From NCBI GenBank assembly GCA_964490105.1, contig CAZAZU010000001.1, forward strand, positions 580,174-644,173: DNA of 64,000 bases, in the 5' to 3' direction. Made by a program: the position numbers and the translations under genes. Origin of the DNA: an uncultured Gammaproteobacteria bacterium (GTDB lineage Bacteria; Patescibacteriota; Microgenomatia; Levybacterales; UBA12049). Each line of letters starts with the position of its first letter. Within the stretch, counting starts at the first letter, position 1. The notes beneath the pieces were generated by a model. That model saw only the letters and a list, made by a program, of their open reading frames with translations, did not search any database and was not told the origin of the DNA. This document shows positions 16,942-62,315 of the stretch, in pieces.

Positions 16942-17012
16942 CGGGGTATAGTTTAGTGGTAGAATGCGCGGCTGGGGGCCGTGTGGTTCAAGTTCGATTC
17001 TTGATACCCCGA
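16942..17012 (+). tRNA. tRNA-Pro, anticodon GGG
   Basis: Manual fold: acceptor CGGGGTA/TACCCCG with the C1:G72 pair characteristic of bacterial tRNA-Pro. T-arm TCAAG-TTCGATT-CTTGA. Anticodon loop CTGGGGG with U33. Discriminator A; no encoded CCA. Confidence 0.7.
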
Positions 17013-60177: not shown

Positions 60178-60528
60178 TTATCTGAGTTCTTTATCACTTA
60201 AACCGAAATGGTGGCCTATTTCGTGAATCACAGTTCTTCTGACGCGGGCTCGTACTTCATCTGGAGTGCGTGAAACCATAAGTATCGGATATTTAAAGAT
60301 GGTAATCTTATCTGGCAGTACGCCTGTGTAATTTCTTCTTTGCGTAAGAGGAATTCCTTCATAAAGACCAAAGAGTAAACTTCGCCTGTTCAATCTAAGT
60401 TTTGCAGCCTGCATAGGACTTGGCCAGTTTTCAAAAGTAACACCTACATTTTCAAGTCTTTTGGCAAATTCAGGAGGCAAACTATCAAGCGCTTCTCCGA
60501 TCAACTTTTCAAACTCCGCATCATCCAT
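60178..60528 (-). CDS. Zincin-like metallopeptidase-fold protein (DUF1025/Zincin_1)
   Basis: 116 aa with the C-terminal HEIGHHFGLSD (HExxH) motif. Confidence 0.55.
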   Translation of the reverse strand: MDDAEFEKLIGEALDSLPPEFAKRLENVGVTFENWPSPMQAAKLRLNRRSLLFGLYEGIPLTQRRNYTGVLPDKITIFKYPILMVSRTPDEVRARVRRTVIHEIGHHFGLSDKELR

Positions 60529-60638
60529 CCCGTTAGAAGCAGATCGCGATCATCTGCTTATCCTTTCAACTATTTCAAATCCTTAAAAGCGATCGCGGCT
60601 TCTAACGGGATCCATGGACTTAGGATTATACATGAGAA

Positions 60639-60666
60639 TTGACAAATTTTTTTAATCTGATATTCT
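60639..60666 (+). promoter_or_regulatory. Candidate metK promoter TTGACA-16 nt-TATTCT
   Basis: ttgaca aatttttttaatctga tattct. The predicted TSS falls at the start of the riboswitch-like leader. Confidence 0.35.
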
Positions 60667-60673
60667 TTAATCT

Positions 60674-60762
60674 GCATTAAGAGAGTCCGATCAATATCGG
60701 ACCGGCAACCGAGCCCTTCGACCAGCTCAGGGACGCGGTGCCATTCCAAAAAGGAAATGCGG
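60674..60762 (+). promoter_or_regulatory. SAM-riboswitch-like leader (SAM-I core features, apparently P4-less SAM-I/IV-type) upstream of metK
   Basis: GCATT...AATGC (P1). AAGAGAG. Hairpin TCCGATcaatATCGGA (P2). GGCAACC. A GC-rich P3. GGTGCCATTCC. Then TTCC-AAAAA-GGAA, which could sequester the AAGGA SD of the metK ATG at 60766. Confidence 0.5.
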
Positions 60763-60765
60763 CTT

Positions 60766-61863
60766 ATGAGCAAAAATATTTTTACTTCTGAATCTGTTAG
60801 CAATGGCCACCCGGATAAAATCTGTGATTCTATTTCTGACTCCATTTTAGATGCTGTTCTTGCAAAAGATAAATTTGGAAAAGTCGCAGTTGAATGTCTC
60901 GCAGCAAACAACAAACTTATTATAGCTGGCGAAGTGACAACTAATGCCAAAATAGACTTTGAAAAAATCGCTAGAAAAAGAATAAAAGATTTAGGCTATA
61001 CAAATCCTGATTTTAATTTCTCAGACAAATCAGATATCGAAGTTTACGTTCATGAACAGTCTCCCGAAATAGCCCGTGGAGTCAAGAAAAAAGGAGCAGG
61101 AGATCAGGGAATGATGTTTGGATATGCGTGTAGGGAAACCAAAACTCTAATGCCTTTACCTATTTCTATGGCTCACAGACTCGCTGAAGAACTGGACAAA
61201 AGTAAACAAAAACTCAAATATTTAAAACCTGACGGAAAAACTCAAGTAACCATAGAATACAAGAATGGTGTTCCTTACGAAGTCAAACAAGTTGTTATAG
61301 CAGTTCCTCATGATGAAAAAATAAAACTTGAACAAGTAAGAGAGGATGTTTTCAAATACATAGTCAAACCAGTTTTAGACGGTTTTGGGTTTAAATTTTC
61401 AATAAAAGATTTGATTCTAAACGGCACAGGAGTTTGGCATATGCCTGGACCCTCTTCAGATGCCGGACTCACAGGACGAAAAATAATAGTTGATACCTAT
61501 GGAGGATACGCGAGAGTTGGTGGAGGAGCTTTTTCTGGAAAAGATCCCACAAAAGTAGATAGATCCGGCGCATATGCCGCTAGATTTTTAGCAAAAAATA
61601 TTGTGGCTGCAAAACTCGCAGACAGAGCGGAAGTCAGACTTGCCTATTTTATTGGAGCTAAAAAACCTGTTATGCAGGAAGTGGAAACATTCGGGACTGA
61701 GAAAACATCGGATAAAGTCATTAAAGATTTTATGAGAAAAATTCTTAATACATCAGTCGAGGGAATTATTGATGGCTTGGATCTTAGACAACCAATTTAT
61801 TTAAAAACATCTTCTTACGGTCACTTCGGCCGCCCGGAATTTCCTTGGGAAAGGCTAGTCTAA
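60766..61863 (+). CDS. metK: S-adenosylmethionine synthetase
   Basis: MSKNIFTSESVSNGHPDKICDSISD...GAGDQGMMFGYA...GGGAFSGKDPTKVDRS. Start taken at the second ATG, which has AAGGA about 11 nt upstream; the track ORF starts at 60757. Confidence 0.9.
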   Translation: MSKNIFTSESVSNGHPDKICDSISDSILDAVLAKDKFGKVAVECLAANNKLIIAGEVTTNAKIDFEKIARKRIKDLGYTNPDFNFSDKSDIEVYVHEQSPEIARGVKKKGAGDQGMMFGYACRETKTLMPLPISMAHRLAEELDKSKQKLKYLKPDGKTQVTIEYKNGVPYEVKQVVIAVPHDEKIKLEQVREDVFKYIVKPVLDGFGFKFSIKDLILNGTGVWHMPGPSSDAGLTGRKIIVDTYGGYARVGGGAFSGKDPTKVDRSGAYAARFLAKNIVAAKLADRAEVRLAYFIGAKKPVMQEVETFGTEKTSDKVIKDFMRKILNTSVEGIIDGLDLRQPIYLKTSSYGHFGRPEFPWERLV

Positions 61864-61864
61864 A

Positions 61865-62281
61865 TTATTTTCTTGGGGTTATATCTAATTTTTGATGAAC
61901 CTCATGCCCATCTGAATCAACACTCGTTAAGCTTGCTGTAATTCTTTCTCCTTTTACTTGATCAGGAACGCCAAGTAACCTTGCTCCCTCTTGAAATTCT
62001 TCTAGAAGTCTTGTGGCGGAAGCAACTGTAAGCGTTGCGCTAAGATCTATCCTTACCTGCCCAGGCCTCAACGGATCTGGTGTTTCAAAAACTAATCCAC
62101 CTCTGTCTAACTCATCTCCGCCCACACCTGATTCGAACATGGCTACTCTAATCATATCCTTAGCACGTCCAATTTGATCGGGATGCACCTTTGCTTTTGC
62201 GACCAAATCTACTCGTCTTCCTGCATCAGCTTCATGTGCATCTCCCTGAGATTCTCTTTCGCGTCCAAACATACGTGGCAT
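61865..62281 (-). CDS. Hypothetical protein, GC-enriched with atypical composition
   Basis: 138-aa ORF rich in G, R, D and A; no recognisable motif. Confidence 0.35.
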   Translation of the reverse strand: MPRMFGRERESQGDAHEADAGRRVDLVAKAKVHPDQIGRAKDMIRVAMFESGVGGDELDRGGLVFETPDPLRPGQVRIDLSATLTVASATRLLEEFQEGARLLGVPDQVKGERITASLTSVDSDGHEVHQKLDITPRK

Positions 62282-62315
62282 TATACACTCGAAGTCTTAA
62301 TTGTCAAATTACTAT

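Follow-up and report, generated by a model that had tools for sequence, protein, structure and literature searches.

The 5' leader of metK in the DNA analysed here, from an ultra-small Candidatus Levybacteria genome, is a genuine member of the SAM-I/IV riboswitch family (Rfam RF01725) and not a new kind of element. Most probably this riboswitch makes up the whole leader, the start region of translation is built into the sensor, and SAM blocks the access of the 30S subunit. New here is a SAM-I/IV member in a CPR lineage with a compact expression platform. The leader is unusually compact because the metK start codon lies within the sensor itself. In the following, we refer to the whole stretch of DNA that was analysed, 64,000 nucleotides in length, as the window. 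Its features are collected in Table 1.

The metK gene and its promoter

The start of metK was fixed by protein comparison. A database protein identical to the product of this ORF, P0001, has a length of 365 aa and carries the Pfam domains PF00438, PF02772 and PF02773; therefore, metK starts at the ATG at 60766. The ATG at 60757 (MRLMSK...) was rejected as a start, as it lies 1 nt past the SD-like motif and both the identical protein and the relatives start at 60766. Homologues that share 80-87% identity with this MetK bear the name Candidatus Levybacteria (Microgenomates/Patescibacteria, CPR).

metK is a classic SAM-regulated gene, and here it is found directly downstream of a strong promoter. 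The hexamers of this promoter match at 10 of 12 positions and a TG stands ahead of the -10 box, so that it is near-consensus and of the extended -10 type. In four Levybacteria relatives, the promoter block is nearly unchanged. Judging from the promoter, transcription probably starts near 60673, right at P1. The original prediction had set the extent of the leader at 60639-60765. The leader is real, but its supposed left edge, 60639, falls on the promoter's -35 box; thus, the RNA probably begins near 60673 and the leader would consist of the aptamer alone.

Table 1. Features of the metK leader and of the surrounding window
Feature	Position	Strand	Basis and details
tRNA gene	16942-17012	+	Rfam RF00005, 59.8 bits; only other Rfam match in the window
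Sigma-70-type promoter	60639-60666	+	-35 TTGACA 60639-60644; 16-nt spacer; TG 60658-60659; -10 TATTCT 60661-60666
SAM-I/IV match (aptamer and first metK codons)	60669-60787	+	Rfam RF01725; lineage-specific model R2
P1, 5' strand GCAUU	60674-60678	+	Rfam alignment; followed by J1/2 core AAGAG 60679-60683
AAGAGAG block	60679-60685	+	Sequence
P2, plain hairpin	60683-60703	+	G60683-C60703; GUCCGAU/AUCGGAC 60685-60702; loop CAAU
P3, GC-rich	60704-60742	+	GGCAACC 60704-60710; GGUGCC 60737-60742, then AUUCC 60743-60747
P3b, extension of P3	G60713-C60734; CCC 60714-60716 with GGG 60730-60732	+	Capped by the 13-nt loop UUCGACCAGCUCA (L3, 60717-60729)
P4, in-junction hairpin UUCC-AAAAA-GGAA	60744-60756	+	UUCC 60744-60747; GGAA 60753-60756
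SD-like AAGGA	60751-60755	+	Within the P4 3' strand
P1, 3' strand AAUGC	60756-60760	+	Lies 3' of the SD-like motif and 5' of the start codon
P5 (nomenclature of PMC6890682), GCU-UAUG-AGC, 3 bp	60762-60771	+	Rfam alignment; hairpin 3' of P1
metK (S-adenosylmethionine synthetase), 365 aa, MSKNIFTSESVSNGHPDK...	60766-61863	+	ORF; Pfam on the identical protein

Assignment to the SAM-I/IV family

The leader matched RF01725 at 48.7 bits (gathering score, 41.1); E was 6.6e-5 over the whole 64-kb window and 3.1e-7 locally. RF01725 was the top-scoring member of the SAM clan at the metK leader and the match stood above the curated gathering score. Two weaker matches of the same clan, for which the tool named no family, ranked below it, and one of them may be RF00162. 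The original prediction had called the leader SAM-I/IV-like and had proposed the Rfam covariance models as a check, with no match above noise counting against it. Both the identity and the check came out in its favour, RF01725 being the best clan member and above threshold.

The structure of the leader agrees with this assignment. The SAM-clan core (AAGAG, GGCAACC and GGUGCC-A) is present at 60679-83, 60704-10 and 60737-43 and is invariant across relatives, and the sequence blocks and helices that had been predicted were all found where they had been placed. P2 is a perfect 7-bp hairpin, without the internal loop, kink-turn or PK-1, as is the rule in this family. Its loop has no complement in J3/4, so that a partner for PK-1 is missing there. 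Directly 3' of P1 stands the external hairpin of the family, here of only 3 bp; the two inner pairs drawn by the covariance model are sterically impossible. The loop of this hairpin, P5, holds the metK start codon (60766-60768) and codon 2 forms its 3' strand. Taken together, and leaving PK-2 aside (see below), the leader shows all the secondary-structure features of RF01725 in addition to the curated score. The MFE fold of 60669-60790 is the same four-way junction, with a modest z-score of -2.0, and P1, P2, P3 and P4 all formed in it, as had been expected of a folding check. In ensemble folding, G60753 and G60754 were paired with a probability of about 0.99, and A60756 has alternative pairings, with either U60744 (P4) or U60678 (P1).

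Weinberg et al. 2010 (PMC2864571) described SAM-I/SAM-IV variants that have no P2 internal loop and probably no pseudoknot at the P2 tip. In their consensus, one hairpin stands between P3 and the 3' side of P1, another one follows P1, and the P3 loop pairs with the 3' tail as a pseudoknot. According to the account of the SAM-I/IV crystal structure in PMC6890682, P2 is undivided, PK-1 is absent, and P4 is added to the P5 and PK-2 elements of SAM-IV, while SAM-IV itself has the P2a/P2b internal loop, PK-1 and PK-2, and is without P4. The metK leader shares with SAM-I/IV the SAM-clan core, the plain P2 without PK-1, the optional in-junction P4, the hairpin 3' of P1, the position upstream of a SAM-cycle gene and the score above the gathering threshold. 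It differs from SAM-I/IV in that PK-2 is undetectable in the window, with P3 lengthened instead, and in that the external hairpin has the start codon in its loop and P4 contains the SD-like motif. Among 45 rows of the original SAM-I/IV alignment, none has an AUG in the external-hairpin loop, and where a GGAG-type SD is visible in these rows, it is located 3' of the hairpin.

In the case of SAM-I (S-box, RF00162), the ligand-binding core, the four-way junction in which P4 separates P3 from the P1 3' strand, and the J3/4 motif A(U)UCC are held in common. However, UUCC pairs locally with GGAA in the window as P4, P1 is followed by an additional hairpin, and there is neither a P2 kink-turn, nor a pseudoknot between the P2 loop and J3/4, nor a terminator/antiterminator platform. 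In the case of SAM-IV (RF00634), the core and the hairpin outside the junction, 3' of P1, are alike, whereas the P2a/P2b loop, PK-1 and a detectable PK-2 are missing in the window and a covarying P4 is found. Thus, the absence of kink-turn and PK-1 separates the leader from SAM-I, and the absence of P2a/b and PK-1 together with the presence of P4 separates it from SAM-IV. The departure from the SAM-I consensus that had been pointed out originally (no kink-turn, a short P4) is indeed seen in both respects, but it is normal for SAM-I/IV. What had been called a minimal architecture is the usual one of this family, because the plain P2, the optional in-junction P4 and the external hairpin belong to the 2010 definition.

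Covariation among related metK leaders

To place the leader among its relatives, metK loci were gathered from reference genomes, metagenomes and look-ups of exact proteins. Two covariance models were used: R1 was derived from a single relative, and the lineage-specific R2 from 18 related metK leaders, the window being left out. R2 scored 78.6 bits on the window leader (E = 3.9e-16 in the 64-kb window) and found no second match in the window besides it. A weak R1 match at 61932-62022 on the minus strand (17.5 bits) was regarded as noise, and is absent with R2.

In a CM alignment of 24 related metK leaders, which, being CM-fitted, is biased towards its model, standard pairs occupied 92.6% of the cells compared to 71.4% after shuffling, and changes on both sides were seen in 23 of 29 pairs; none of 500 shuffles attained the observed values. 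Slid controls were 37-48% paired. Covariation was seen in all six helices, and the conservation in metK leaders of relatives, which had also been proposed as a check, was therefore found as covariation-supported pairing throughout. P1 was paired in 98% of the cells with both-side changes in three of its five pairs; the corresponding changes affected eight of nine pairs in P2 and all five pairs in P5 (87% paired). P4 appears among the relatives as UGUU/AACA, UCCU/AGGA, CUCC/GGAG, GUCC/GGAC, UCGCU/AGCGA and UCGU/ACGA, next to UUCC/GGAA in the window. P3b covaries in close relatives (CCC/GGG, UCC/GGA and UCU/AGA; columns 60-63 with 86-89). In the nine closest leaders, P1, P3, P3b and P4 were also recovered de novo by RNAalifold. 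A MAFFT alignment of six leaders was left out of the covariation analysis, since P4 and P5 were misaligned in it, and covariance models were built instead.

The general family model reports only part of this group. Out of 17 related metK leaders, at loci from L081 to L180, RF01725 reports ten at E <= 0.01, eight of them at or above the gathering score and two just below, and misses seven (L082, L162, L165, L170, L171, L179 and L180), all of which reach 45-77 bits with R2. At the gathering threshold, Rfam returned no SAM-clan match in 20 metK loci from reference genomes; one of the leaders without an Rfam match, L001, shows the same architecture by eye and by R1 and R2.

Two designs of the metK leader

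The related leaders split into two designs. In the terminator type, an intrinsic terminator is clear between aptamer and ATG in L081, L082, L083, L174, L176, L178 and L180, and three terminator-less leaders, L001, L087 and L142, are grouped with them. The P3 loop is short in this design. A clear PK-2 of varying sequence is present in L083, L001, L087, L142, L176 and L180, located right after P5 and an A-rich linker, with pairings such as AAAAGUU/AACUUUU, UAGGA/UCCUA and UAACG/CGUUA.

The compact type comprises the window leader and L161, L162, L163, L165, L170, L171, L173 and L179, and here P3 is lengthened by P3b. P1 and the AUG are separated by 5 nt in the window and by 5-11 nt in all nine close relatives, and no terminator-like site was found in 60400-61000 of the window. 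In the compact type a hairpin always surrounds the AUG, and codons 2-5 provide its 3' strand, with the strands GCU/AGC in the window and GUC/GGC, CCU/GGG, UCCUU/AAGGA or CCUUUGA/UCAAA-C-GG elsewhere. The conserved feature of this type is the AUG in the P5 loop beside P1.

Two side observations concern the variation between relatives. In L162, L165, L170 and L171, one more codon near the MetK N-terminus and a substitution (locus ~601-620) give MSNGKN or MSKGKN where the window has MSKN, and the extra or changed codons provide the CGGA/AGGA 3' strand of the AUG hairpin. The MetK N-terminus seems to be shaped by RNA structure. Additionally, three loci with MetK at 55-60% identity (L002 126-297, L085 785-930 and L086 742-912) have a SAM-I-like leader with a P2 internal loop, a longer in-junction P4 and a terminator, which is not of the SAM-I/IV type, and in L003 (1700-2000) the leader is absent and metK abuts the upstream gene. 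None of these four loci attained the Rfam gathering score. Altogether, the SAM-I-like or absent leaders of these distant relatives indicate a turnover of riboswitch classes upstream of metK in this part of the tree.

The PK-2 pseudoknot

The canonical SAM-I/IV mechanism would have PK-2, formed by the P3 loop with sequence 3' of P5, in the coding region or over the AUG, as the real regulatory element. We regard this as unlikely for the window. PK-2 belongs to the definition of the family (SS_cons_1), it is clear with differing sequences in the terminator-type relatives, and the window itself offers short complementarities by eye, namely GCUCA (60725-29) with UGAGC (60767-71) and UCAGGG (60727-32) with UUCUGA (60790-95), to which a 7-bp match of L3 in L163 can be added (p = 0.04). 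However, the candidate pairs of the window compete with P5 or P3b and were rejected as PK-2, not being conserved. The best duplex of L3 with the 18 nt after P5 has an energy of +0.1 kcal/mol in the window (p = 0.56), a search of the whole 3' region of the window gave nothing significant, and nothing significant was found in eight of nine close relatives, although the absence of detectable pairing does not amount to proof that PK-2 is absent. The L3 duplex energies of the compact group are also unlike those of the terminator-type group (Mann-Whitney p = 0.006). Lastly, the window, L161 and L163 have identical downstream sequence and yet unrelated L3 loops, and so no common partner of L3 could be conserved. 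The compact subgroup therefore either lacks PK-2 or has not conserved it. The P2 loop and L3 were also compared by eye, and no kissing complementarity was found.

The P3 loop shows one further peculiarity. In L161, this loop (~545-560) contains UGAGCAAA and so repeats, in the same sense, the start region of its own mRNA, AUGAGCAAAA (~598-610), while the homologous loop in the window has the complement instead (GCUCA), so that either P5 strand is matched, depending on the relative. This likeness could be due to chance or to strand exchange with P5.

The SAM-I/IV crystal structure is that of Trausch et al. 2014, where PK-2 is reported to be stabilised by SAM and part of the switch. The lack of a detectable PK-2 in the window consequently counts against the reading of the leader as a SAM-I/IV riboswitch with a built-in start region. 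We tentatively consider, as a possibility with the odds rather against it, that the compact subgroup of Levybacteria forms a distinct sub-architecture of the SAM clan, in which a four-way junction binds SAM without PK-1 or PK-2, a lengthened P3 compensates, and the AUG lies in a hairpin loop adjacent to P1. If this were true, the aptamer itself would be the whole translation-initiation region, in an organism mostly without SD sequences.

Proposed control of translation initiation

For the SAM-I/IV riboswitch with a built-in start region, which remains our preferred reading, the following mechanism can be proposed. The transcript would start at P1 and fold into a four-way junction of P1, a plain P2, a long P3 and a short P4, with P5 directly next to it. 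The start region would lie within the sensor, with the SD-like AAGGA as 3' strand of P4, the AUG in the P5 loop, and a spacer consisting of the P1 3' strand and the P5 5' strand. When SAM is abundant, it would bind the conserved core of P1, P3 and J1/2 and lock P1, with P4 and P5 stacked on it. With P1 locked, positions -22 to +5 would be out of reach of the 30S subunit and MetK synthesis would fall. When SAM is scarce, P1 would breathe and the start region would open. We infer both the binding of SAM and the translational repression. The action at translation that had been predicted originally is in line with the lack of a terminator before the ATG and with the position of the ATG 5 nt after P1, and to this extent it stands, repression being the inferred part of it.

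Translational SAM riboswitches whose aptamer includes the ribosome-binding site are known in SAM-II, SAM-III/SMK box, SAM-V and SAM-VI. In these, the start region takes part in the structure of the ligand-bound fold, and a separate expression platform is missing. Their folds and pockets are unrelated to the window leader, and the likeness is an analogy of mechanism only.

Several observations have to be weighed against this mechanism. P5 has only 3 bp in the window, the MFE structure does not keep P1 when more coding sequence is included, and opening of -15 to +12 in the ligand-free state is predicted to cost only ~6 kcal/mol. The low opening cost and a P1 that is not always kept would be as expected if the energy of the ligand were needed. 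In addition, the use of SD sequences in the genome is low, so that the recognition site of the ribosome is uncertain. By a rough count that took the first ATG as ORF start, an SD-like motif stands upstream of only 13 of the 52 long ORFs (>= 150 aa) of the window. We also observed a TATAAT-like box 5-15 nt ahead of the ATG in many of these 52 ORFs, which suggests that leaderless mRNAs or mRNAs with very short leaders are widespread in the Levybacteria genome.

The occlusion of the SD by P4, as proposed in the original prediction, is plausible for the window, where GGA ends 10 nt before the AUG and its two G residues are paired almost throughout the ensemble. It is not a conserved feature, though. 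The distance from GGA to AUG is 12-17 nt in six close relatives, ACGA replaces GGA in L173, and P4 helices of the UCC/GGA type are present in terminator-type relatives, too. As the GGA distance varies or GGA gives way to ACGA, as P4 is alike in the terminator type, and as SD motifs are few, SD occlusion by P4 is not the conserved principle.

It is very unlikely that the leader acts through premature termination, Rho or RNase access, at the level of transcription or mRNA stability, and not on translation initiation. The same aptamer does carry a terminator in the seven metK-leader relatives named above, and therefore both modes exist in the lineage, but the window is without a terminator-like site, the 5 nt between P1 and AUG leave no room for an expression platform, and a lower stability of the mRNA could still be a secondary effect of reduced translation. 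Least likely of all is that the leader is a decayed or constitutive structure which has lost the sensing of SAM, or responds to a related ligand such as SAH, since the missing PK-2, the minimal P5, an Rfam score just 7.6 bits over the threshold and the seven relatives missed at E <= 0.01 stand against core positions that are all intact and invariant across relatives with 47-88% MetK identity and helices kept by compensatory changes, including changes in P5 against coding constraint, which together indicate purifying selection on the fold.

Neighbouring features of the window

Two further features were observed on either side of metK. Upstream, the window has an insertion of 81 nt at 60529-60609 that four close relatives lack. 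Its ends are inverted repeats of ~14 bp (CCCGTTAGAAGC...GCTTCTAACGGG), inside of which lie GATCGCGATC/GATCGCG, and the 6-bp sequence ATCCAT is directly duplicated on its two sides, at 60523-60528 and 60610-60615. Folded as DNA, the insertion gives a long hairpin (-21.9 kcal/mol, z = -6.8), and it looks like a MITE-like element; no second copy was found in the window. It sits exactly at the start codon of a divergent Zincin_1 (PF06262) gene and parts this gene from its apparent leaderless-type promoter (GTATAATCC, minus strand).

Just 3' of metK, the region 61865-62300 has a GC content of 0.44-0.46 compared to ~0.38 and a strongly negative GC skew. It contains a minus-strand ORF of 138 aa rich in Arg, Asp and Gly, and the relatives have a plus-strand gene of 78 aa in this place.

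Implications for the family and for Levybacteria

The metK leader provides a clean riboswitch, with support from covariation, in the Patescibacteria (CPR), which are little studied and largely uncultivated; our literature searches on SAM riboswitches in CPR found nothing specific. RF01725 misses seven of 17 related leaders, and adding them would therefore improve both the family model and the annotation of CPR genomes. The compact design, with the AUG in the aptamer and no separate expression platform, offers a minimal model of ~100 nt for the question of how differing peripheries support the SAM-clan core. If PK-2 should truly be dispensable, this would bear on the question of peripheral architecture that arose from the SAM-I/IV crystal structure. 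For the organism itself, feedback control of SAM synthesis would have been kept although the contig that bears MetK is only ~785 kb long.
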